Origin: an uncultured Eubacteriales bacterium
Lineage (GTDB): Bacteria; Acidobacteriota; Aminicenantia; Aminicenantales; Saccharicenantaceae
Direction of reading: 5' to 3'
Assembly (NCBI GenBank): GCA_964541055.1
Contig: CAZIQR010000002.1
Location: 1-45,980 of the forward strand
Length of the DNA: 45,980 nucleotides
The notes under the pieces were generated by a model, which worked only from the letters and a program-made list of their open reading frames with translations, was not told where the DNA came from and did not search any database. This document shows positions 4,533 through 42,724 of this stretch, piece after piece. Each line of letters opens with the position of its first letter. Within the stretch, counting starts at the first letter, position 1. The position numbers were made by a program, and so were the translations under genes.

Positions 4533-5939
4533 ATGGAATTCATCAGCATCCTCAACGACGTCCTCGGGCCGGTCATGCGCGGGCCCTCGAGCTCGCACAC
4601 GGCCGGGTCCTATCACATCGGGCGGCTGCTTCGGTCGATGCTCGACGGGGAGCCGGCGCGGGCGACCTTCACCTTCGACCCGAAAGGCTCATACGCCGCG
4701 ACCTACCGGCAGCAGGGCGTCGACTTGGCGTTGACCGCGGGCCTGCTCGGCTGGCCGATCACCGACCACCGCTTCGCCCGGGCCCTCGATCACGCCGCTC
4801 GAAGGGGTTTCCGGCCGCTGTTCCGCGTCGCGCCGCTCGAGCGCGCGGACCATCCGAACACTGTGACGGCGGAGATCGTCTCGAAAAGCGGCCGGCGGCT
4901 TAGGGCCACGGCCAAATCGATCGGCGGCGGCATGGTCCTCGTGACCGAGGTCGACGGCCGGCCGGTACGGCTCGACGGCAAGAGCCAAGCGGCCGTTGCC
5001 CTCGGAGGAGGCGACGGCGGAGAGAGAGGCGAAACGGTCGTCGTCCCGCCGCTCTTCCATGTCCAAGAGGGCAAGCCGCTCTTCACGTCGTCGGAGGAGA
5101 TGGTCGCCCTGGCTCGGCGGCGCCGCGTGTCATTAGGCCGGGTCGCGCTCGCCTACGAGTCGCGATTGCTCGGGCTCCCCGAGGCCGATGTTCTTGACGA
5201 GATCGGCCGCCGGCTCGAGATCATGAAGGACTCCGTGCGCCGTGGCCTGAGGGGACCGGGGCTGCGCTTGAAACTCCTGAAACCCACGGCGGGGAGAATC
5301 CTCGGGGCCGAAGCGGCCGGCGGGCTGCCGGGCGGCGGCATGCCGGCCCGGGCCGCGGCCAGGTCCATGGCCGCCCTCCACGTCGCCGGAAGCGGCGGCG
5401 TCGTCTGCGCCGCTCCGACCGGCGGGTCGGCCGGGGTCCTGCCGGGGGTCATGGTCACGTTGGCGGAAGAGAAAGGGCTCGACAAGGAAAAGGCCGCCCT
5501 GGCGCTCCTCGCCGCAGGCGCCGTCGGGCTCATCGTGGCCCGCCGGGCGACCTTCGCCGCCGAGGTCGCGGGCTGCCAGGTCGAGATCGGCGTTGCCGGG
5601 GCCATGGCCGCGGCCGCGGTCGTCGAAGCGGCGGGCGGGACGGCGGCCCAGGCGGCCGACGCCGCGGCGATCTCCCTTCAAAACACCATGGGCTCGGTCT
5701 GCGACCTCGTCCAGGGGATGTGTGAGATCCCCTGCCACACCCGGAACGCCGTCGCGGCCTCGAGCGCATTCGTTTGCGCCGATCTCGTCGTCGGCGGTTA
5801 TGAGAACCCGGTCCCCCTCGACGAGACGATCGACGCCTCGTTCGACTCCGGCCGGATGCTGCCGCCCGAGCTTCGCTGCACGGCCATGGGCGGCCTGGCC
5901 GTCGCGCCCTCGGCTTTATCGCTCAAGAAAAGGCGCTAA
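4533..5939 (+). CDS. sdaA: L-serine ammonia-lyase (L-serine dehydratase), iron-sulfur dependent, single-chain beta-alpha form
   Basis: N-terminal GPSSSHTAGS motif. Cys-containing alpha-domain motifs are present (VVCAAPTGGSAGVLPG, GCQVEIG, GSVCDLVQGMCEIPCHTRNA). Starts 9 nt after the OCD-family gene. Confidence 0.8.
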   Translation: MEFISILNDVLGPVMRGPSSSHTAGSYHIGRLLRSMLDGEPARATFTFDPKGSYAATYRQQGVDLALTAGLLGWPITDHRFARALDHAARRGFRPLFRVAPLERADHPNTVTAEIVSKSGRRLRATAKSIGGGMVLVTEVDGRPVRLDGKSQAAVALGGGDGGERGETVVVPPLFHVQEGKPLFTSSEEMVALARRRRVSLGRVALAYESRLLGLPEADVLDEIGRRLEIMKDSVRRGLRGPGLRLKLLKPTAGRILGAEAAGGLPGGGMPARAAARSMAALHVAGSGGVVCAAPTGGSAGVLPGVMVTLAEEKGLDKEKAALALLAAGAVGLIVARRATFAAEVAGCQVEIGVAGAMAAAAVVEAAGGTAAQAADAAAISLQNTMGSVCDLVQGMCEIPCHTRNAVAASSAFVCADLVVGGYENPVPLDETIDASFDSGRMLPPELRCTAMGGLAVAPSALSLKKRR

Positions 5940-6036: not shown

Positions 6037-8925
6037 TCACTTTCGTTCGCTGCGGTCGGAGGGCGGGGCCATGAGCCGGGTCGTGTATTCCGTCTCGACG
6101 TTCTCGAAGAAGGCCCCTTCAAATCGTCCGGGCTCGAGGGTCGGCAGGCTGACCTCGATATCGATGGGGCTGTCGGGCCGGATGCGGCTGACGTCGGCGT
6201 AGTGGCCGATGAAGGTCCGCTCCGGCGAGTGCCCGTAGATGCTGTTGTAACCCTTGAGGATCTCGACCGGCTGGCCGTTGATCCTCAGGCTCACGGGCAT
6301 CGCGTCCGTCCCATCGATGATGGGGATGTGGAGGAGCAACCGCCAGGGAGCGAGCCACGGGGACCGTAAATCCTCATCGCTGTAGGCCACGGGCCAGGAC
6401 TTCTTGCGCTCGACGAGCTGGTCGAGGACGCGCTTCGGCACGGTGATGCGGGCCTTGTAGATCCCGCCCGTGAACCCGGCCGGGACCGGACCGGCGCATT
6501 GGGACTTGGCGAAGACCCGGCCGGCGAAGCGCACCGTGGCCGTAACCACGTTCTTGTCGGCCTTGAAGGGGTAGGCGACGCCGTTGACCGAGAGGGCCCG
6601 GACGCGGGACTTCTCCGGCACGACGACGACGAGCGTCCGCGAGGTCCCGGCCTCGGCCGTGACCTCGGTCAGCGCCAGGCGCGTGGACTGGAGCGCGGCC
6701 GCGCCGGCGGCGTTGAAGAGGATGGGCTCCTTGATCGCCGCCGGGGCGGGAAAGACCTCGTAGACCGCCGCTTCGCGGCCCGGCAGGGTCAGGGCGACCT
6801 CGCTGCCGTAGGTCCACGGGCCCTCGGGAGAGCCGACGAGGCGGCCGGCCTCGGGATAGACCTCTTTGATCATGATCCGGTCGCCCTTGACGAGGCCGAT
6901 CGTCGGGTCGAGCTTGAAGCGGGCCGTCTTGGGGCCCGGATTGGGATTGAAGAGGAAAAGGAGGCCGCGGTCCTCGACGATGGCCGCCGTGCCGTCGATG
7001 CGGCCGGCCATGGGCGGGCCGAGGATCGGGCGCAGGGCGTGGAGGTAGCTCGCGTTCTCGTCCGTCCAGTCGAGCCAGCCCTTGAAAAAGGCCTTGTCCT
7101 CGTCCGAGAGGGCCTTGAACTCCTCGGGGTCGCGGGCCGGGATGAAGTCAATGACGTGGTTGAAGGGCGCCGTACCGATCGAGGACAGGAGCGAATAGGT
7201 CCAGCCGAGGACGTCCCAGTCCTTGGCGTGGAAGCGGTCGCGGCGCATGACGCCGGCCCCGTCGTTGCGCTCGGACTGGTGGGTGATGAAGCCGGGCATG
7301 ATCTCGGGCGGCGTAAATCGCTCGACACGGTAGGTCCAGGCGGCGAAGCGCTGCCGGTCGGCCGAGACGCGGTCGGTGTGGAGGTCGGGGAAGGCCTTGA
7401 AGCTTTCCGGCTGCTCGTCGGTCAGGGTCGGATGCGGGTAGGAGCCGCCGAGCCAGGTCCAGGGGCCGAAGTTCTGATATTGCTGGCGGCCGTCGACGAC
7501 GGCGTCGAAGGCGGCCCGGCGCAGGCTCTCGAGGATGCGGCGGCCGCCGTACCACTGCGCGTATTTGCTAGAGGCCTTGTCGAGGGCGATCCACCAGTGA
7601 TCGAAGGAGTAGCCGGCGGCACCGGTCGCCCTCATGAACGAGAGGAGCTTGTCCAGCCACCAATCCTGGAACGAGCGCAGGCCGGTGTCGGCGCCGGCTT
7701 TCGAGGCGCCGTCGCCGGCGTAGGCCGTCCACTCGGGGTTCTGGAGGAAGGGCAGCGAGGGGTAGGCGTAGGCCATGAGCTTGAGCTTCTTCGAGGCGGC
7801 GTAATCGAGCATGGCCTTGAGGCCGGCCGGCACGTCGTCACGGCGCGGGTCCCAATCCCCTTTCCGGATCTTCTGGCCGAGCCCGAACCAGAGGACGTTC
7901 TCCCAGCCCCACGAGTCGGCGTTCTCGTCGAGGCTCGAGAGGGCGCTGTTGGCCGGGGTGTAGAGGAGGTGGGTCGCGCCGAGCTCGGCGGCCCTGTCCA
8001 TGATCCGCTTGTATTCCTCGACGCCTTCGGGCGTGCCGACGTCGATCTGGTAGTCGTTCTCGCACCACGGGATATGGACGCGGACGCCGCGGGTGGGCAG
8101 GTCGAGCAGGAACGAGCGTACGCATTCGACGAGGGCGTTCGACTCGGCGATGTCGATCGTCGGCGAGTCCTTGAGGAGCTTGTCGTAGTCGGGGACGAAG
8201 ACCCATTCGGGCACGGCCTTGGCCGGGATGCGCAGGCCGGCGAGGTCGGTGATGCCGAGGCAGAGGCGGTCCGAGGCGAAGGGGCCGAGGTCGCGGCTCC
8301 AATCCATGTCGGGGGCGTAAGAGACGGAGACCGCGGCGCCTTCGCGGGTCCAGGTCATGAACGGGTTCTGGAGAAGGAAGAAGACGCTCCACGCAGTCCC
8401 GGCGGAGGCGTCGGCCCCGAGGAAGCGGCAGACGGCGCCGAACGAGCCGCCCTTGAGGGGCAGCTCCTCGACGACCGAACGGTCGAGCCGGGTCTGGAAC
8501 GGCATGACCGCGTTGATGTGAAAAGCGCGGCTCCGGGCCGAAGAGACGACGATCTGCTTGGTCAGGAACTCCCAGGCCGGCTTGAGCTCGTAGATGACGT
8601 CGAAGGTGTAAGGATCGCGGGTGTAGCGGTAGGCGACCTTGGCCGGGGTCATCTCGATCTCGGCCGGGCCGAGGCTGCCGATGAGAACGGCGGCGCCGTC
8701 GATGGTGATCGTGGACGGGTCGGCCGAGAAGGCGAGGGCGCGGCCGGACTTGGGCAGGCTGATGGAGGCGATCCCCTGGTCGTTGAAGGCGGCGCGGATG
8801 CGGCCGTTGTCGAGAGCCATGTCCTCGGCGTGGGCCTGGACGGCGGAGGCGAGAAGGACAGAGAGGGCGGCCAGGGCCAGAAGAGCGCGGGTCGGGCCGG
8901 GGGACGTCGGGCGCATCGCGGTCAT
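6037..8925 (-). CDS. large secreted protein, putative glycoside hydrolase, family unassigned
   Basis: 962-aa ORF with native codon bias. Signal peptide ...LLALAALSVLLASAVQAHAED. AAGGAG SD upstream. Lies 91 nt downstream of GH127 on the same strand. I see no diagnostic catalytic motif, so the function is only inferred from context and size. Confidence 0.7.
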   Translation of the reverse strand: MTAMRPTSPGPTRALLALAALSVLLASAVQAHAEDMALDNGRIRAAFNDQGIASISLPKSGRALAFSADPSTITIDGAAVLIGSLGPAEIEMTPAKVAYRYTRDPYTFDVIYELKPAWEFLTKQIVVSSARSRAFHINAVMPFQTRLDRSVVEELPLKGGSFGAVCRFLGADASAGTAWSVFFLLQNPFMTWTREGAAVSVSYAPDMDWSRDLGPFASDRLCLGITDLAGLRIPAKAVPEWVFVPDYDKLLKDSPTIDIAESNALVECVRSFLLDLPTRGVRVHIPWCENDYQIDVGTPEGVEEYKRIMDRAAELGATHLLYTPANSALSSLDENADSWGWENVLWFGLGQKIRKGDWDPRRDDVPAGLKAMLDYAASKKLKLMAYAYPSLPFLQNPEWTAYAGDGASKAGADTGLRSFQDWWLDKLLSFMRATGAAGYSFDHWWIALDKASSKYAQWYGGRRILESLRRAAFDAVVDGRQQYQNFGPWTWLGGSYPHPTLTDEQPESFKAFPDLHTDRVSADRQRFAAWTYRVERFTPPEIMPGFITHQSERNDGAGVMRRDRFHAKDWDVLGWTYSLLSSIGTAPFNHVIDFIPARDPEEFKALSDEDKAFFKGWLDWTDENASYLHALRPILGPPMAGRIDGTAAIVEDRGLLFLFNPNPGPKTARFKLDPTIGLVKGDRIMIKEVYPEAGRLVGSPEGPWTYGSEVALTLPGREAAVYEVFPAPAAIKEPILFNAAGAAALQSTRLALTEVTAEAGTSRTLVVVVPEKSRVRALSVNGVAYPFKADKNVVTATVRFAGRVFAKSQCAGPVPAGFTGGIYKARITVPKRVLDQLVERKKSWPVAYSDEDLRSPWLAPWRLLLHIPIIDGTDAMPVSLRINGQPVEILKGYNSIYGHSPERTFIGHYADVSRIRPDSPIDIEVSLPTLEPGRFEGAFFENVETEYTTRLMAPPSDRSERK

Positions 8926-37123: not shown

Positions 37124-39304
37124 ATGCTTGAGATACGCCCGTCTGCCAGTCTGCGTCTTCTTATCTTCACGGGCTTGGCTTTCTTGGCTATGACAGGTGC
37201 ATCGCCGGCTCCCGCCCGTGGACAGAACCAGACGCTGACGAAGCCTCTTCAATACGAAGTCAACGTCGTCCTCAAGCTCATCCATGTCTACGTGACGGAC
37301 AAGAAGGGCAACCCCGTGCCGGACCTGGTCGCGGGGGATTTCGTTGTAACGGACAACGGCCAGACGGTGGCGATCACGGCCCTCGAAAAGCACACCATCA
37401 AGGCCCAGCCCGCGTCTCCCGAGGAAGCCGCGCGCGTCGAGCCGCGTGAAGAGGCGCCCGTCGCGAAGCCTCAACCCGGCCCGGAGTCGAGCCGCAAGTT
37501 CTTCCTCTATTTCGATTTCGCCTATAACAACATGCGCGGCATCCTGAAGGCCCGCACGGCGGCCCTCCACTTCCTCGACGATGTTGTCCGTCCTGACGAC
37601 CAGGTGGCGGTGCTGACCTATTCCGCGGTCGGCGGCCTCTCCTTCCATGAATACCTGACGAGCGATCACGCCAAAGTGCGCAAGGTCCTTGAGGAGATCG
37701 GCCACCAGGACATCCGAGGTCGGGCGACCGAGATCGAAGACGCCTACTGGCGGCTGATGCAGGATTCCCCCGGCACCGGGGCCGGAGCGGCCATGGGCAC
37801 GAACTTCCGGGCGGAGGCCGACGCCAACCGCCAGGAATCGAGGAGCATGGCCCAGAGGTTCATCCTGGAGATGACGGGCCTGGCCCGCGCCCTGCGGCTC
37901 GTCGACGGGGAGAAACACTTCATCCTCTTCTCGACCGGCGTCCCCAACGCCTTGATCTATGGCTACACTCCAGGCAACCCCTTCTATCGGTCCGGCTTCG
38001 GCAGCGGCGAAACGGTCGGCGACAACGTCCTGCGCGGCCAGAACGAACAGATGTACAAGGAATTCAGCGCCGCGGGCTGCACGTATTACACGTTCGACAC
38101 GCGGGAAACGGCCAAAGAGGTCTCGCTCTTCACCTATGACGACGTCACCCTGGCGACCGGGGCCCGTTCCATGAGCACCGGGGTCACGGGCGCGACGGAC
38201 GTTTTCAAGGACGACAAGCAGGGCGGGCTGAACTCGCTCAAGCGGCTCTCCGACCTCACTGGCGGGAAATACTATTCGAACATCAATAGGTACGATAAGA
38301 ACCTGGCCCAGATCCAGGCCATGACAGGGACCTATTACGTCCTCGGTTACGCCATCAACGAGCGCTGGGACGGCCAGTTCCACGACGTCAAGGTCGCCGT
38401 CAACCGCAAGGGCTGCGAGGTCCGGGCCCAGGCGGGATACTTCAATCCCAAACCGTTCAGCGAATACACCGATCTCGAAAAGCAGATCCATCTCTTCGAC
38501 CTGGCGCTCAACGAGAAGGCCTTCTCGCGACTGCCTATCAACGTGCCGATGATCGCCTTGGCAACCGGAGCGGAAGGCCTCTCGCGGCTGGCCGTTCTGG
38601 CCAAGGTCCCGGCCGAGGTCACGGCCAAGCTCAAGGGCCAAAAGGTCGAATTCGTGGCCATCTTCTTTGATGCCAAGGGCGAGATCAGCGAGATCGTCCG
38701 GGAAGAGGCCGATCCGTCCGCGCTGAGGGACCGGGACTTCGCCTTTGCGGCGGGCGCGACGCTCAGCCCGGGGGATTACTCGTGCCGCCTGGTCATCCGG
38801 GACATAGGGACGGGCACGAGCGCCGTGGCCGCGGCCAAGGCGACGATCGTCAAGCCCCAGATCACGGGGCTCCAGCTCGGCACGCCCCTGATGCTCGAGG
38901 CCCGGACGGGATGCCGGCTTCTCGTCCCGACGGCAAAAAAGGCCAAAGCCGCTTTTCCCTGGGGCGAGATCTATCCTTATGACAGTGCGCTCTACGCGCC
39001 GGTCATGAACGAGTGTACGTCGGCGGCAGTGAACCTCGAGGCCGTCATCCCCTGCGCGAACGCGGCCGTCCAGTCGGACCTGGCCGTGACCGCGGCTCTG
39101 GTCAACGCCGCGACCGGGGCGCGCTCGCCCGTCGCCATCTCGGCGATGAACCGGACCCCCAAAGGCCCGCTCGAGATCCTGTCCCTGGAGATCCCGACGG
39201 CAGGCATTGCCCCGGGGACGTATTATCTGCATTTCTATGCCCAGGACAGGGCCTCGGGCGCGCTCGGGCACTCGTTCACGACCCTGGTCGTCGCCCCGCG
39301 ATAA
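37124..39304 (+). CDS. VWFA-related domain protein (TIGR03436-type, Acidobacterial)
   Basis: Signal peptide. N-terminal YEVNVVLKLIHVYVTDKKGNPVPDLVAGDFVVTDNGQTVAI is the characteristic start of this family. A VWA-like core follows (FFLYFDFAYNNMRG...VAVLTYS). Confidence 0.8.
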   Translation: MLEIRPSASLRLLIFTGLAFLAMTGASPAPARGQNQTLTKPLQYEVNVVLKLIHVYVTDKKGNPVPDLVAGDFVVTDNGQTVAITALEKHTIKAQPASPEEAARVEPREEAPVAKPQPGPESSRKFFLYFDFAYNNMRGILKARTAALHFLDDVVRPDDQVAVLTYSAVGGLSFHEYLTSDHAKVRKVLEEIGHQDIRGRATEIEDAYWRLMQDSPGTGAGAAMGTNFRAEADANRQESRSMAQRFILEMTGLARALRLVDGEKHFILFSTGVPNALIYGYTPGNPFYRSGFGSGETVGDNVLRGQNEQMYKEFSAAGCTYYTFDTRETAKEVSLFTYDDVTLATGARSMSTGVTGATDVFKDDKQGGLNSLKRLSDLTGGKYYSNINRYDKNLAQIQAMTGTYYVLGYAINERWDGQFHDVKVAVNRKGCEVRAQAGYFNPKPFSEYTDLEKQIHLFDLALNEKAFSRLPINVPMIALATGAEGLSRLAVLAKVPAEVTAKLKGQKVEFVAIFFDAKGEISEIVREEADPSALRDRDFAFAAGATLSPGDYSCRLVIRDIGTGTSAVAAAKATIVKPQITGLQLGTPLMLEARTGCRLLVPTAKKAKAAFPWGEIYPYDSALYAPVMNECTSAAVNLEAVIPCANAAVQSDLAVTAALVNAATGARSPVAISAMNRTPKGPLEILSLEIPTAGIAPGTYYLHFYAQDRASGALGHSFTTLVVAPR

Positions 39305-39346
39305 CCTTATCAGGCCCCGCCCCCGGGGAGATGGGACAGGATTGTT

Positions 39347-39390
39347 TTACCCTACATTTTCTTGACATTCGTCCTTTTGTAGGGTAATTT
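39347..39390 (+). promoter_or_regulatory. near-consensus promoter (TTGACA-17-TAATTT) embedded in the perfect palindrome TTACCCTACA-N21-TGTAGGGTAA
   Basis: Palindrome arms at 39347-39356 and 39378-39387. TTGACA at 39362-39367. TAATTT at 39385-39390. The ATG at 39397 is only 6 nt after the -10, with no SD. Confidence 0.55.
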
Positions 39391-39396
39391 GTCCGC

Positions 39397-40392
39397 ATGG
39401 AAGATCTTAGGAACGTCCTCAACGAAAATGCCGCGTTCTATAAGGACCAGGAACGGAAGATCTCCGCGCGGCTCGCCCTGCTCCCGAAAGGCACGGTCCG
39501 GATCAAGGTGATCGGCGAGGAGCATTATCATTATCTCCAATACAGAAAAGGCCGGTCCGTCAAAACGGATTATATCGGGAAGGTCGTTCCTCAAGAACTC
39601 AAGGACAACCTGGCGGAGAGGGACCGATTGGAGAAGGAACTGCTAAGGGTCCGGGAGGCCCAACGCCTCCTCAGATCGGGGCGAGGGGAGGAGCTCGATC
39701 TCACGGGCCCCGTCATGGACATCTTGCGGGCGATGACGGCGCACAAGCTCTGGGATGAGGGATTCGAGATCATCGGCAGCTGGTGTTTTCTTCTCTATCA
39801 AAAGCATCTGCCGATGGAGAAGTATCCTCTCCGGACGGAAGACCTCGATATTCTCGTGCCTCGACCGTTCAAGGGGCGTCCCTTTGACTTCGGAGAGCTC
39901 ATGGAGCGCCTGGGTTTCCGCCAGCATTTCAATGCGGACGGGTCCGTCTACTTTACCGGCAACCGGATGAAAGTGGAATTCGTCACCAAAGAAAGGAGGG
40001 ACGGAACCCTCCCCCCCCGCTTTATGAAGGAGATCTCCTTGACGCCCCAGGAACTGAGGCACCTGGAGATCCTCGCCGCCGAGCCTGTCACCCTCAAACT
40101 CGGACGGGGGACGCTGGCCCGCGTTCCCAGCCCCGCGGCATTCCTCTTGCACAAGCTTTTTCTGGCCGCCCGCCCTGAGCGATCGGCGAAGAGGGAAAAG
40201 GACATCAAACAGGCCGTATACGTCGGCCGGTATATTCTCACGGAAGCTTGTGAAAGAGCCCGATTACTCGGTCTTTGGGCCGGTCTCTCAAAGCGGTGGA
40301 AGTCTCTGGTCCGGCAGTCCTTGACAGGCGCCAAGGACTTGATGCCCCTGGAAACGCCTGCGATCGAGAGACTGCTGGAAATTCTAGGCTGA
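39397..40392 (+). CDS. Pol-beta-superfamily nucleotidyltransferase-fold protein (AbiEii / GSU2403-like) with fused N-terminal beta-hairpin/coiled-coil module
   Basis: 331 aa. NTase signature IIGSW (res 125-129) ... TEDLDILVP (D149, D151). N-terminal HYHYLQYRKGRSVKTDYIGK followed by a heptad-like ERDRLEKELLRVREAQRLL. Distinctly lower GC than all its neighbours. Confidence 0.7.
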   Translation: MEDLRNVLNENAAFYKDQERKISARLALLPKGTVRIKVIGEEHYHYLQYRKGRSVKTDYIGKVVPQELKDNLAERDRLEKELLRVREAQRLLRSGRGEELDLTGPVMDILRAMTAHKLWDEGFEIIGSWCFLLYQKHLPMEKYPLRTEDLDILVPRPFKGRPFDFGELMERLGFRQHFNADGSVYFTGNRMKVEFVTKERRDGTLPPRFMKEISLTPQELRHLEILAAEPVTLKLGRGTLARVPSPAAFLLHKLFLAARPERSAKREKDIKQAVYVGRYILTEACERARLLGLWAGLSKRWKSLVRQSLTGAKDLMPLETPAIERLLEILG

Positions 40393-40393
40393 T

Positions 40394-40434
40394 TTACCCT
40401 ACAAAACGCGGGATCCCCCGCCTCGGTAGGGCAA
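40394..40434 (+). repeat. second copy of the TTACCCTACA-N21-(T)GTAGGG(T)AA palindrome, starting 1 nt after the stop codon
   Basis: TTACCCTACA at 40394-40403 (identical to 39347-39356). Right arm gGTAGGGcAA at 40425-40434 (8/10). Same 21-nt spacing. The spacer contains a small GCGGG/CCCGC hairpin. Confidence 0.55.
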
Positions 40435-40486
40435 GCCAGCCCGGACTCGTCAAAAGTCGGCCGCTTCTTGGGCCGAAGAAAACCGC

Positions 40487-40564
40487 TTGACAGCGTTACC
40501 TCTGTCTACTATATTCCTATGCGTGCATGTTAATATTGATTTAATATTAATTTGAACGCATAGG
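40487..40564 (+). promoter_or_regulatory. promoter TTGACA-17-TATATT followed by the palindrome CCTATGCGT-N31-ACGCATAGG with an AT-rich core
   Basis: TTGACA 40487-40492. TATATT 40510-40515. Palindrome arms at 40516-40524 and 40556-40564. The core is TTAATATTgatTTAATATTAA. The right arm covers the weak SD (TAGG) of the MerR gene. Confidence 0.5.
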
Positions 40565-40570
40565 TATACT

Positions 40571-41278
40571 ATGAACAAAGACGTCCTGACCCTCCAAGAC
40601 CTCGCCGCCAAGTCCGGCGTCCCGGCTGAGCGCATCGCCGAATGGGCCAAGGTCAAGCTCGTCAGGCCCGAGGGCTACGGCGAAAAGAAGGCGCCGCTCT
40701 TCTCCGCCGCCTCCCTCGAGCGCGTGGCCCTCGTCCAGCGCCTGGCCGACCTCGGCTACGGCACGGACGAGATCCTCAAGATCGCCAAGAAGGTCGGGCT
40801 GCCGAAAGACGCCCGCGGCAAGAAGAAGGCCGCCGGCAAGGACCGCTTCCTGACCGTCGGCAACCTGGCCGAGCGCTCCGGCGTCAGCCCCCGCACGATC
40901 AAACACTGGGAAGACAAGGGCATCATCGAGCCCGACATGCGGACCGAGGGCGGCTTCCGGCTTTACTCCGAGTACTACGTTTTCCTCTGCCAGCTCATCC
41001 GCGATCTCCAGCTCTTCGGCTATTCGCTCGAGGAGGTCAAGGCCATCTCGAACGACGTTCGGACACTCCTCGCGATCGAGGACGACCTCGAGGCCACGCC
41101 GCCGGCCGAGGTCGAGAAGCGCCTCGCCGCCATGCTCGAGGCCATCCGCGGCCTTTATGACCGCATGAAGCTCATCGAGGAGGGCATCGAGCGCTGGCGC
41201 GACCAGCTCAAGAAGAAGAAAAGGGACATCCTCGCCCTCCAGTCCCGGAACGCCAAGCGGGCCAAGCCCGCGAAGTAG
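40571..41278 (+). CDS. MerR family transcriptional regulator with two tandem MerR-type HTH domains and a C-terminal coiled coil
   Basis: Domain 1, about res 6-72 (LTLQDLAAKSGVPAERIAEWAKVKLVRPEG...LFSAASLERVALVQRLADLGYGTDEI). Domain 2, about res 93-158 (LTVGNLAERSGVSPRTIKHWEDKGIIEPDMRTEGGFRLYSEYYVFLCQLIRDLQLFGYSLEEV). They are joined by a Lys-rich linker. Confidence 0.8.
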   Translation: MNKDVLTLQDLAAKSGVPAERIAEWAKVKLVRPEGYGEKKAPLFSAASLERVALVQRLADLGYGTDEILKIAKKVGLPKDARGKKKAAGKDRFLTVGNLAERSGVSPRTIKHWEDKGIIEPDMRTEGGFRLYSEYYVFLCQLIRDLQLFGYSLEEVKAISNDVRTLLAIEDDLEATPPAEVEKRLAAMLEAIRGLYDRMKLIEEGIERWRDQLKKKKRDILALQSRNAKRAKPAK

Positions 41279-41284
41279 GCCGCC

Positions 41285-42724
41285 ATGCCCAAGATCGTCT
41301 TCATCGAACCGAAAGCCCCCAATCTCCACATCTTCTCCCGGTTCCCGCTGCCGCGCCTGGGAACGCTCATCCTCGGGACGATGATGAAGCGGCGCGGCTG
41401 GGAGGTCGAGCTCTTCGTCGAGGATTTCCGCACGGTCGATTTCGACGTCATCGCCAAAGCCGATCTCGTCGGCATCTCGACGATCACCTCGACCGCGCCC
41501 CGGGCCTACGCCATCGCCGACAAGGTTCGGGCCATGGACATCCCCGTCCTGATGGGAGGCCCCCACGTCACCTACTTGACCGACGAGGCCCTCGAGCACG
41601 CCGATTTCGTCGTCCGGGGCGAGGGCGAGGCGGCGCTTGCGGCCTTCATCGACGCCCGGGAGCAAGGGACCGGCTACGCCGACGTGCCCAACCTCTCTTA
41701 CAGGGACGGGACCGGCGCTGTGGCCCATAATCCCCTCGCGCCGCGGGCCACGAATCTCGACGCCATCCCCTTCCCCGACTTCTCGCTCCTGCGCCCCGAC
41801 GCGAAGAGCCTCAAGCACATGTCCTCGATCCCCGTGCTGACTTCGCGCGGCTGCCCCTTCGACTGCTCCTTCTGCTCCGTGACGGGCATGTTCGGCCGCA
41901 AGTACCGCTTCCGCTCGACGGCGAACATCATCGAGGAGCTGCGGCTCTATTCGGGCCGCAAGACCATGATCTTCTTCTACGACGACAATTTCGCCGCCGA
42001 TCCCAAACGGACCCGAGAGCTCTGCGAGGCCATGATCCGGGAGAGGATCAAGGTCCGCTGGACGACCCAGGTCCGGGCCGACGTCACCCGCGACCCCGAT
42101 CTCATCCGGCTGATGAAGGAATCGGGCTGCCACACCGTCTACATCGGCTTCGAATCGGCCAATCCGGACGCCCTCGAGGAGATGAAGAAGAAGCAGACGG
42201 TCGAGGAGATCGGCCGGGCCGTCAAGGTCTTCCGCCAGAACCGCATCCACATCCACGGCATGTTCGTCCTCGGCTTCGACCAGGACGACTGGCGGACGGT
42301 CCGCAAGACGGTGCGCTGGGCCAAGCGGGCCCGCTTGACCTCGACGCAGTTCCTCATCCTGACGCCGCTCCCGGGATCGGCCTTCTACGACCGGGTCGCC
42401 GCGGAGGACCGCATCCGCTTCCACGACTGGGCCCTCTACGACGCCCACCACGCCGTCTTCCAGCCGGCCCGCTTCTCGCTCCCCGACCTCCAGAGGGCCC
42501 AGAGCTTCGCCCACCGCAAGTTCTACTCGCTCAAGGGTTCGGTCCGGAAGGTCCTGGCCGGCCAGTGGCTGGCCCTGGCCATCGCCCATTATGCCCGACG
42601 CCTCGACAAGACCTGGAAGAAGAAGAACCGGACCTTCCTCAAGGTCGCGGCCCTGCTCAAGCCCCGTCCGGGCTCCAGGGCCAAGATCTCGGTCGATTAC
42701 ATAGAGGACGTGGGCTTGGAATAA
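41285..42724 (+). CDS. B12-binding domain-containing radical SAM protein (class B)
   Basis: N-terminal cobalamin-binding-like Rossmann region (DLVGISTITSTAPRAYAIADKVRAMDIPVLMGGPHVT). CxxxCxxC cluster motif SRGCPFDCSFCSV (C190/C194/C197). 479 aa. Starts 6 nt after the MerR stop. Confidence 0.85.
   Translation: MPKIVFIEPKAPNLHIFSRFPLPRLGTLILGTMMKRRGWEVELFVEDFRTVDFDVIAKADLVGISTITSTAPRAYAIADKVRAMDIPVLMGGPHVTYLTDEALEHADFVVRGEGEAALAAFIDAREQGTGYADVPNLSYRDGTGAVAHNPLAPRATNLDAIPFPDFSLLRPDAKSLKHMSSIPVLTSRGCPFDCSFCSVTGMFGRKYRFRSTANIIEELRLYSGRKTMIFFYDDNFAADPKRTRELCEAMIRERIKVRWTTQVRADVTRDPDLIRLMKESGCHTVYIGFESANPDALEEMKKKQTVEEIGRAVKVFRQNRIHIHGMFVLGFDQDDWRTVRKTVRWAKRARLTSTQFLILTPLPGSAFYDRVAAEDRIRFHDWALYDAHHAVFQPARFSLPDLQRAQSFAHRKFYSLKGSVRKVLAGQWLALAIAHYARRLDKTWKKKNRTFLKVAALLKPRPGSRAKISVDYIEDVGLE

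Follow-up and report, generated by a model that had tools for sequence, protein, structure and literature searches.

We describe a gene at positions 39397..40392 of contig CAZIQR010000002.1 (NCBI GenBank assembly GCA_964541055.1, positions 1 to 45,980); the whole stretch of 45,980 nucleotides is referred to below as the window. The gene encodes a protein of 331 amino acids (aa) in which an N-terminal module, DUF6788, is joined to a nucleotidyltransferase (NTase) domain of the NTP_transf_8/GSU2403 family. It corresponds to a conserved two-gene operon in fused form, was acquired horizontally as a single gene inserted between two unrelated core genes, and is flanked by palindromes that recur with its homologues. 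We hold these statements on architecture and evolution with high confidence. In our best explanation, to which we give about even weight, the feature is a self-contained accessory module of ~1.09 kb (39347-40434), that is, an autoregulated unit resembling a toxin-antitoxin (TA) module in which a predicted RNA-modifying NTase would be held by its N-terminal module (N-module). The parts of this explanation differ in strength. DNA binding and autoregulation are rather probable, and a toxin function of the NTase is a tentative proposal, whose chances come close to balanced and fall a little on the doubtful side.

Domain composition and the split counterpart

The open reading frame (ORF) begins with ATG, and all overlapping ORFs run antisense or in another frame. 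The sequence-only reading that preceded this study had recognized a single credible ORF of 331 aa, and the ORF list agrees with it. A chance ORF or artefact was ruled out by 174 homologues at E<=1e-3, nearly all of full length, by conservation over the whole length and by a confident structural model. The G+C content of the gene is 57.9%, compared with a mean of 67.0% (standard deviation 2.8) for the 29 other ORFs of the window (z = -3.2), which makes it the lowest among the 30 window ORFs; at third codon positions (GC3) the values are 72.5% and 86.1%, respectively. The intergenic DNA on the two sides of the gene contains 51% and 48% G+C, and the counts made earlier for three 60-nucleotide (nt) lines inside the gene (39421, 39541 and 39781) were reproduced exactly (0.58, 0.48 and 0.47). 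This compositional dip of about -9 points is moderate rather than dramatic. In 21 of 29 loci, the flanks of the NTase gene are richer in G+C than the gene itself. The features of the gene are as follows.

39397..40392 (+): fused DUF6788/NTP_transf_8 (GSU2403-family) gene, 331 aa; ORF list, Pfam, homologues and structural model
39397..39696 (+): N-module, aa 1-100; structural model and profile homology to stand-alone DUF6788 proteins
39676..39702 (+): low-confidence linker, aa ~94-102 (model confidence below 50 at aa 95-99), equivalent to the stop/start overlap of split operons
39703..40389 (+): NTase domain, aa 103-331, Pfam NTP_transf_8; PF12281 and Foldseek
39775..39849 (+): catalytic core, G127-S128 (39775-39780) and T147-E-D149-L-D151 (39835-39849); homologue alignment
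39976..40203 (+): E194 (39976-39978), H252-K253 (40150-40155) and D269 (40201-40203); homologue alignment

The Pfam profile PF12281 (NTP_transf_8) matches residues 106-283 over profile positions 3-204 of 218, with 83.3 bits against a cut-off of 26.3 (E = 3e-23). The NTase of a split operon scores 97 bits and a member from Paracoccus 236 bits. Judged by this profile match, the fused protein is a direct member of the NTP_transf_8/GSU2403 family. In an alignment of 29 homologues with 45-89% identity, conservation extends from end to end; G127, T147, D149, H252, K253 and D269 are invariant, and D151 is kept in at least 90% of the sequences. The Pol-beta signature, hG[GS] followed by [DE]h[DE]h, is present as I-I-G127-S128 and D149-L-D151-I, so the two motifs that had been picked out by eye, G127-S128 (IIGSW) and D149-L-D151 (TEDLDILV), 20 residues apart, are in place. 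E194 lies in a V-E-F segment on strand 191-198 of the model; F195 is invariant, and two sequences have Asp at position 194. E194, which is conserved, is likely the third carboxylate and a putative metal ligand.

The AlphaFold2 (AF2) model of the full protein has a predicted local distance difference test score (pLDDT) of 88.6. It consists of a helix (2-28), three strands (33-39, 42-51 and 54-61), a second helix (66-93), a disordered linker (95-99, pLDDT <50) and an alpha/beta NTase domain whose second, C-terminal half is helical. A Foldseek search of the PDB placed the Mycobacterium tuberculosis toxin MenT1 first (8an5_B, E = 1.1e-4, probability 1.0) and 8an4_B third. The other top matches were the fungal NTase-like structure 5uvd, ANT(2'')-Ia (E = 5e-3) and CCA-adding enzymes, with a probability of 1.0 for 5uvd and ANT(2'')-Ia as well, and poly(A) polymerase subunits were matched in a library of viral folds. 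The NTase domain is basic (isoelectric point 9.7). The Pol-beta NTase fold proposed from the letters is therefore present, and it is exactly of the GSU2403/NTP_transf_8 type.

The ~100 residues that precede the Pfam match form a distinct module, modelled as a helix (2-28), a three-stranded beta-sheet (33-61) and a helix (66-93/99), with a pLDDT of 92.9 when modelled alone. A profile of aa 1-100 found 211 proteins, and most of the 120 listed were stand-alone DUF6788 (PF20586) proteins of ~96-108 aa. Against the ~101-aa proteins annotated as DUF6788, E-values ranged from 1e-24 to 1e-38, and the sources of the stand-alone proteins among the matches listed included Omnitrophota, Margulisiibacteriota, Deltaproteobacteria and others. 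The module and the stand-alone proteins align over 100 aa without a gap, with L8, G32, Y46, R50, Y59 and G61 invariant. We use the label DUF6788 because of the precomputed annotations and this homology to annotated proteins. The same evidence bears out what the sequence-only reading had offered as a guess, namely a DUF6788-type module fused ahead of the NTase, and shows that this module is a stand-alone protein elsewhere. The beta-sheet region carries a net charge of +5 in the window and of +5 to +14 across the family. The nearest folds, all below significance (E >= 0.3), are DNA binders with a three-stranded sheet, namely the arm-type domains of P4-type and HPI integrases, an Sso7d-derived scaffold and AP2. 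The N-module is the putative DNA-binding, antitoxin-like part and the candidate reader of the palindromes described below.

In six of six contexts examined, a stand-alone DUF6788 gene overlaps a separate NTP_transf_8 gene of 224-236 aa by 4-29 nt, and the small gene comes first. At one locus (L031), the 98-aa gene ends in ATGA, which starts the 226-aa NTase gene; four independently picked stand-alone genes are each followed by an NTP_transf_8 gene of 227-230 aa with an overlap of 4-8 nt. Two distant NTase-only representatives (L124 and L126) have an overlapping upstream gene of 104-108 aa, and the L124 partner, which has no Pfam match, is homologous by hhalign (96.8%, E = 2.4e-10). The lengths add up (101 + 230 = 331), and the split genes end and begin at the position equivalent to the linker of the fused protein. 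Because homologues of the N-module overlap separate NTP_transf_8 genes in all of these contexts, the window gene is the fused form of a conserved two-gene operon. The normal two-gene arrangement, for which the sequence-only reading had found no partner ORF in the window, does exist in other bacteria, where the small partner is a counterpart of this N-module. Two apparent split forms were rejected as frameshifted or deleted copies. One of them (L029:5992-7043, from a long-read metagenome-assembled genome of Spirochaetota) has a frameshift inside the N-module, and the other (L032:379-1406) has lost the D-x-D segment; the upstream palindrome is kept in both.

An exhaustive profile search at E<=1e-3 recovered 2,202 clusters at 50% identity, and fused and split forms were counted among the best 150. 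About 29 of these clusters contain fused proteins of 314-355 aa, whose match begins at profile positions 1-40, mostly 1-6. About 75 contain the NTase only; these proteins have roughly 207-255 aa, and their match begins at position 98-124. The family occurs in Aminicenantes, Omnitrophota, WOR-3, Nitrospirota, Deltaproteobacteria, Alphaproteobacteria and others. A megaplasmid of a cultured bacterium, Paracoccus sp. TOH, encodes a fused member of 337 aa, which is annotated as 'GSU2403 family nucleotidyltransferase fold protein'; it has the same layout and the same half-site upstream. Compared with this catalogued family, the window gene shows no difference in kind. The combination of PF20586 and PF12281 is recorded for most of the homologues listed. 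To call the single-polypeptide form an undescribed architecture, as had been done from the letters, was thus an overstatement. In a text search of 8 million papers, GSU2403 appeared in a single one and only in passing, and NTP_transf_8, DUF6788, PF12281 and PF20586 were not mentioned. The family is catalogued and functionally undescribed; only its function is undescribed.

Flanking palindromes and the insertion site

The gene lies between two palindromes, whose features are given here.

39347..39387: upstream 41-bp palindrome, putative operator O1; TTACCCTACA (39347-39356), 21-nt spacer, TGTAGGGTAA (39378-39387), perfect symmetry
39362..39367 (+): -35 box TTGACA in the palindrome spacer, kept across fused loci
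39385..39390 (+): -10-like hexamer TAATTT, starting in the right arm, 6 nt before the ATG, kept across fused loci
40394..40434: downstream 41-bp palindrome, putative operator O2; TTACCCTACA (40394-40403), 21-nt spacer, GGTAGGGCAA (40425-40434), 2 mismatches in the right arm

O1 ends 9 nt before the ATG, and O2 begins 1 nt past the stop codon. The half-site TTACCCTACA has three exact copies in the 45,980 bp, all of them flanking the fused gene, where 0.25 are expected and none of 100 shuffles reached three; the fourth arm, GGTAGGGCAA, is degenerate. The palindrome noticed in the sequence-only reading is accordingly real, and it is conserved. We surveyed the fused loci with upstream sequence, which span 39-100% protein identity and 26-68% flank G+C. 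The upstream layout is the same in every one of them: TTACCCTACA, a spacer of 20-21 nt and TGTAGGGTAA, with 8-11 nt (mostly 9) left between the palindrome and the start codon. A downstream copy is found in 22 of the 28 loci from the window and the genome scan, either 0-12 nt past the stop codon (0-2 nt except in L006) or overlapping the end of the ORF (L029, L030 and L031).

The upstream spacer contains a TTGACA-like box with at least 4 of 6 positions matched in 24 of 26 fused loci, perfectly in 12. The distance from the -35 to the -10 element is 16-17 nt (17 nt in 23 loci), the -10 hexamer reads TAnnnT in 24 of 26 loci, and it stands exactly 6 nt from the start codon in 19 of 26. A Shine-Dalgarno-like motif was found in none of the 26 fused loci. 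Because the -10 hexamer lies 6 nt from the ATG and a Shine-Dalgarno motif is lacking, we predict that the fused gene is transcribed from a promoter within the palindrome and that its mRNA is leaderless. A scanner for consensus promoters did not call the promoter of the fused gene, since its hexamer matches TATAAT at only 3 of 6 positions. Three NCBI entries for close homologues (P0064, P0073 and P0075), each of 254 aa, are without ~77 residues at the N terminus. Most likely the start codon was called wrongly in them, since the true start has neither a leader nor a Shine-Dalgarno motif.

The split operons L031, L033, L035, L036 and L039 follow the same plan with a half-site variant, TTACACTACA. 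In these operons a TATAAT overlaps the right arm and is followed by an AAGGAG ribosome-binding site, and the second palindrome straddles the stop codon of the NTase gene. The half-sites are more divergent in the two distant NTase-only representatives: in L126, two TTAACCTACA palindromes stand upstream in tandem, and in L124 the sequence is TTACC(T/A)TAC. In Paracoccus, at 27% identity, TTACCCCAC-N12-GTGGGGTAA stands upstream with a further GTGGGGTAAG 4 nt before the ATG. Two sites thus recur in distant members, placed either around the gene or in tandem upstream of it. Members from Aminicenantes to Omnitrophota share the palindrome layout, and Paracoccus still has the half-site.

The manner in which the sites vary is informative. 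Perfect symmetry is seen in 26 of 33 upstream sites, and three half-site variants (CCCTAC, CACTAC and CCCCAC) each occur in both arms and again in the downstream copy of the same locus. The spacer length is 20-21 nt in nearly all sites, and the sequence of the downstream spacer is free. Identity between sites together with a fixed spacer length is what a dimeric DNA-binding protein would impose; a protein is favoured over a hairpin because a hairpin needs complementarity only within one site.

Some further repeats were observed near the module. A third palindrome copy is present at L015:3510-3550, 2.5 kb upstream of the NTase gene, and equals the downstream copy of that locus except for the first base; a 413-aa gene lies between palindrome copies. 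In the same locus (L015:3480-7200), a repeat of ~100 bp occurs at least four times within 4 kb and gives a spurious peptide, TLIFSRIATPSPNPSAI..., in several ORFs; it resembles a repetitive extragenic palindromic element (REP) or a miniature inverted-repeat transposable element (MITE). In the four closely related copies L007, L008, L009 and L011, the module is followed (~7100-7170) by a terminator-like repeat, GAAAATAAAAAAGGGCGGA..CCC....GGG.CATCCGCCCTT, and the same GAAAATAAAAAAGGGCGGA..CATCCGCCCTT repeat lies 60-90 bp left of the module in L008 and L009 (~5850-5900). Recombination between these terminator-like repeats could explain a reshuffling of the module.

Evidence of insertion comes from the junction between the gene for a 726-aa protein on the left and a MerR-like gene on the right. 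A metagenome scan anchored on the downstream MerR-like gene gave 80 related loci with a MerR-like and a B12-radical-SAM (S-adenosylmethionine) gene, and the NTase gene is in none of the 80. In seven of them (L045, L046, L050, L052, L057, L069 and L119) the junction is empty, as the synteny check proposed beforehand had asked: the homologue of the 726-aa gene is separated from the MerR-like gene by 109-123 bp, and its stop codon lies ~25 bp from a conserved MerR promoter (CTTGACA..TATATT). The gap in the window is 1266 bp, therefore ~1.15 kb has been inserted, and the conserved promoter resumes at 40487. The inserted segment is the following.

39305..40466: inserted segment, from the stop codon of the 726-aa gene to the MerR promoter region; edges approximate (+/- ~30 bp), seven empty-site relatives

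Neither base-precise edges, nor a target-site duplication, nor a precise empty site could be defined from the seven relatives, because they are too divergent (the 726-aa protein is 49-63% identical). Copies of the NTase gene with 89% and 81% identity share the context of the window, and homologues at <=76% identity sit in unrelated neighbourhoods. One locus (L121) carries the gene beside a MerR-like gene that is 77% identical, and loci whose MerR-like gene is 74-85% identical lack it; presence is therefore patchy among genomes of similar divergence. With seven empty sites and with other homologues in unrelated contexts, the horizontally acquired cassette suspected earlier is well supported. 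A different, unrelated insertion of ~1.2 kb, with an ORF for a probable secreted protein, occupies the same junction in L067 (634-1846), and this intergenic spot may be a recurrent landing place for accessory genes.

No conserved protein-coding partner was found beside the fused gene. In an all-against-all BLAST of 794 neighbouring ORFs from 29 loci, no neighbour family recurs in more than six loci, and the largest clusters are both-strand ORF artefacts of conserved non-coding DNA in the flanks. The MerR-like protein was rejected as a partner because the MerR/radical-SAM pair is conserved without the NTase in the 80 loci. A total of 108 neighbours from 31 loci are mostly metabolic or regulatory, with one restriction-modification (R-M) pair and a few generic kinase or tetratricopeptide-repeat (TPR) matches. 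Neither an integrase nor a transposase is among the most frequent neighbour families listed in the bulk neighbourhood scan. The only defence-island-like context seen is that of L035 (509-3021), where a split DUF6788/NTase operon lies ~1 kb downstream, at a distance of one small gene, of a type II R-M system (Vsr endonuclease, DNA methylase and HaeII-type enzyme).

Proposed toxin-antitoxin-like function and alternative explanations

According to published work, MenT toxins add nucleotides to tRNA 3' ends and need the Asp of the Pol-beta motif together with a downstream Lys and Asp; the catalytic residues are D80/K189/D211 in MenT3 and D69/K171/D186 in MenT4 (PMC7450476). MenT toxins are switched off by phosphorylation of a Ser or Thr beside the catalytic Asp, S78 in MenT3 and T39 in MenT1 (PMC11375011). 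In the window protein, the spacing D151->K253->D269 is 102/16, compared with 102/15 for D69->K171->D186 of MenT4, and T147 stands two residues before D149, as the phospho-acceptor S78 does before D80 in MenT3. From this resemblance in spacing, we suggest that T147-x-D149-x-D151, K253 and D269 may be equivalent to the catalytic pattern of MenT.

The NTase toxins of the MenT and AbiEii types, with their antitoxins MenA and AbiEi, provide a precedent for the module (PMC7450476, PMC10435456, PMC11375011). The present family shares with them the Pol-beta NTase fold, for which MenT1 is the best match among solved structures, a basic surface, and, in the split form, an antitoxin-like small gene upstream; the conserved Ser/Thr two residues before the catalytic Asp and the Lys and Asp at a MenT4-like spacing may be further common features. 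It differs from them in that no relation exists at the sequence level, that the partner is a helix/beta-sheet/helix module unrelated to AbiEi/COG5340 or MenA, that both parts are fused in the window gene, and that a second putative operator follows the stop codon. In the work of Hampton et al. 2018, AbiEi autoregulation reportedly depends on binding of the partner to promoter palindromes, and the palindromes of the present module resemble that arrangement.

Fusion of a toxin with its antitoxin is known for other folds, as in CapRelSJ46 (PMC9712102) and EzeT (PMC4826407). Like these proteins, the present one would combine a toxin and a neutralizing module in a single polypeptide, with separate genes for the two in relatives; the CapRel effector also targets the tRNA 3' end, which for the present protein is only a prediction. 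However, the toxin folds of CapRelSJ46 and EzeT are those of toxSAS and of a zeta kinase, and the antitoxin domain of CapRel is C-terminal and senses phage proteins, with no DNA-binding or operator role known, whereas the present module lies at the N terminus and apparently binds DNA. No NTase effector appears in a 2026 preprint that deals with effector activation by DNA-bound sensor proteins.

In the proposed mechanism, the N-module would bind the TTACCCTACA half-sites, probably as a dimer. The half-sites lie ~31 bp apart from centre to centre, which would correspond to three helical turns and would place them on one face of the double helix. Within the upstream site lies the -35 element of the gene's own promoter, and the -10 element overlaps it, so binding would repress the leaderless transcript. 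The second site, after the stop codon, might be bound by the same protein for cooperative binding, for a repression loop across the ~1-kb gene or as a roadblock, and O2 would also give the mRNA a 3' hairpin. The C-terminal NTase would be active and, like the MenT and AbiEii toxins, would add nucleotides to RNA 3' ends, with tRNA as the most likely substrate. The N-module would restrain the NTase, in cis in the fused form and in trans in the split operons. Several properties typical of TA modules were found: a compact two-gene split form, a small upstream partner, unrelated genomic locations and empty-site polymorphism.

A number of results weigh against this explanation. Toxicity has neither experimental nor bioinformatic support, and a covalently fused inhibitor needs a release mechanism, of which none is evident. 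PADLOC-DB v2 gave 0 matches at E<=10, and the neighbours (108 from the 31 loci) are mostly housekeeping genes with no enrichment of defence islands or mobile elements, and the toxin/defence-type system suggested as a candidate in the sequence-only reading stays a hypothesis. Of the Pfam families that the same reading had named for a search, NTP_transf_8 was found, but AbiEii/DUF1814 (PF08843) gave no match even at E<=10. NCBIfam had no match for the fused protein, and a PDB sequence search with a single sequence and with a profile had no match to any solved structure. The TM-scores of the MenT1 match are low (0.27-0.46). With respect to the N-module, the fold search with the module alone returned no significant structural neighbour (best E = 0.3), the precomputed PF20586 match is marked 'weak' for the window protein and is unmarked for stand-alone relatives, and hmmscan of the local Pfam copy returned no PF20586 match for any of 35 members; this profile is probably missing from the local Pfam-A copy, which is silent even for strongly annotated proteins, and its negatives for DUF6788 are unreliable. 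Residues 3, 6, 18, 33 and 98, considered as trackers of the operator variant (CAC-type versus CCC-type loci), were left unused since they are confounded with clade. Finally, O2 could act purely as an RNA hairpin.

The module could instead encode a regulated, non-toxic enzyme with no TA logic and with palindromes that are ordinary operators, and we consider this unlikely, although it is the least unlikely of the alternatives. A DNA-binding domain might be joined to an NTase that modifies a small molecule, as ANT(2'')-Ia does, or that repairs RNA ends in the manner of CCA enzymes, or the NTase-fold domain might be a ligand sensor that controls the DNA-binding module; one-component proteins are usually built in this way, from a DNA-binding domain and a domain that acts as enzyme or sensor. 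The Foldseek matches to ANT(2'')-Ia and to CCA-adding enzymes, the lack of PADLOC or TA-family matches, the housekeeping-like neighbourhoods and the stable inheritance of the gene within a sub-clade are all consistent with such an enzyme. However, an operon with the small gene first and an overlap of 4-29 nt, a patchy spread and solitary insertions in unrelated intergenic regions are typical of TA modules, the only operator sites are those of the module itself, with none elsewhere in the 46-kb window, the best structural match is a toxin, and the T-x-D, K and D signature of the window protein resembles that of MenT. The downstream palindrome raises a separate question, because it may serve only as a 3' stem-loop of the RNA, a stabilizer or terminator, and leave the upstream palindrome as the sole operator. 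We regard this as distinctly unlikely. O2 folds stably as RNA (-29.3 kcal/mol, z = -3.4), with extra flanking and inner pairs, and other loci reach -13 to -18 kcal/mol; moreover, it is always placed at the stop codon, and its arms are more degenerate than those upstream. Against this role, the downstream arms keep the sequence of the upstream operator and its lineage-specific variant, the spacing of 20-21 nt is kept despite a free spacer sequence, distant members have two sites in tandem upstream instead, and the scanner found no intrinsic terminator on the + strand downstream of the fused gene, where O2 is not followed by a U-tract.

The arrangement palindrome-gene-palindrome could also be a discrete mobile cassette whose palindromes are recombination or transposition sites for a host recombinase or for the encoded protein. 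The outer arms do form 10-bp terminal inverted repeats of a 1088-bp unit, DNA homology between copies in different contexts starts 0-3 bp from the outer edge of the upstream palindrome, and its other end lies, in many pairs, 0-4 bp past the downstream one. Among the copies in L007, L008, L009 and L011, which are 91-95% identical, the left flanks are of three unrelated kinds and break at -3. One intergenic site is polymorphic for the presence or absence of the unit, the two palindrome copies of low-GC loci are near-duplicates including the spacer, L015 has its third copy 2.5 kb upstream, and the N-module weakly resembles the arm-type DNA-binding domains of integrases. Nevertheless, we judge such a cassette improbable. 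No integrase or transposase recurs near the module, the module was absent from IMG/VR viral contigs and INPHARED phages, and only a single plasmid carried it. In all fused loci the upstream copy serves as a promoter, with a constant distance to the start codon, both sites lie upstream and do not bracket the gene in Paracoccus and L126, and selection on the operators alone would also end the homology at their edges. Moreover, the right flanks of recent copies are homologous for 20-118 bp beyond the palindrome, into the shared terminator-like repeat, and neither a target-site duplication nor a precise empty site is definable. We know of no recombinase with an NTase fold. Still less probable, and to be given very little weight, is an autonomous mobile cassette of a new kind, whose palindromes would be both operators and recombination ends and which would be moved between intergenic sites by its own protein or by a host factor recruited through an arm-type-like beta-sheet domain; the homology ends near the outer palindrome edges and the unrelated left flanks of near-identical copies speak for it, and the promoter role of O1, the tandem upstream sites of distant members and the lack of target duplications or multi-copy evidence argue against it. 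Integron cassettes resemble the module in that each is a single promoter-proximal gene with an imperfect palindrome at either end, chromosomal integrons commonly contain TA cassettes, and the arm core GTAGGGT/ACCCTAC is one base off the attC core, which we take to be GTTRRRY/RYYYAAC. The attC reading was rejected since no integrase is among the neighbour families listed in the bulk scan, of which none recurs, and since the upstream copy is the gene's own promoter. Unlike an integron, no locus has an integrase or a cassette array within +/-6 kb, the site is a 41-bp palindrome with a plain spacer, its upstream copy stands at a fixed promoter distance, and some members have the sites in tandem upstream.

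We therefore retain the autoregulated TA-like module as the preferred explanation. Three aspects of it appear to be new: DUF6788 as the dedicated partner of NTP_transf_8 NTases, in a natural fused/split pair; the link to the MenT and AbiEii toxins at the level of fold and motif; and the conserved layout with two operators, a promoter in a palindrome and a leaderless transcript. The operator pair, the leaderless promoter and the fused/split relationship are all undescribed in the searched literature and databases. If the explanation is correct, DUF6788 and NTP_transf_8 would constitute a large uncharacterized family of NTase TA-like modules, about 2,200 clusters at 50% identity, with a new type of partner, a helix/beta-sheet/helix DNA binder, whose recognition sequence is unusually conserved across phyla. 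The natural fused and split forms offer ready material for comparing neutralization in cis with neutralization in trans. With its promoter inside one operator, its leaderless mRNA and another operator at the stop codon, the module would have a regulatory layout that is unusual among TA modules and that leads to testable predictions. For annotation, DUF6788 genes could be named as partners of GSU2403-family NTases, the leaderless starts would explain the N-terminally truncated database entries, and the palindrome would serve as a simple DNA marker for the module.

Genes beside the insertion

The labels given earlier to the two flanking genes fared differently. The MerR label was confirmed, but the protein called 'VWFA', which is the 726-aa protein (37124-39304), has no Pfam match, either in precomputed annotation or in our own scan. 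Its homologues are only 40-63% identical while the adjacent MerR-like proteins are 71-78% identical, and the 726-aa protein therefore evolves fast. To the right of the insertion, 40571-42724 of the window encodes a 235-aa MerR-like regulator with two helix-turn-helix (HTH) domains and a B12-binding radical SAM enzyme of 479 aa. The two genes form a tightly conserved pair and lie 5-50 bp apart in ~70 of the 80 loci (L041-L120), that is, in all those with downstream DNA. The promoter of the MerR-like gene, TTGACA-17-TATATT, is strong, with 11 of 12 consensus matches (window 40487-40570), and is followed by an inverted repeat, CCTATGCGT (40516-40524) and ACGCATAGG (40556-40564), around an AT-rich core. 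The region 40487-40570 is conserved in all related loci, whether the NTase gene is present or absent, and for this reason the inverted repeat at 40516-40564 is probably the MerR operator of the MerR/B12-radical-SAM operon.

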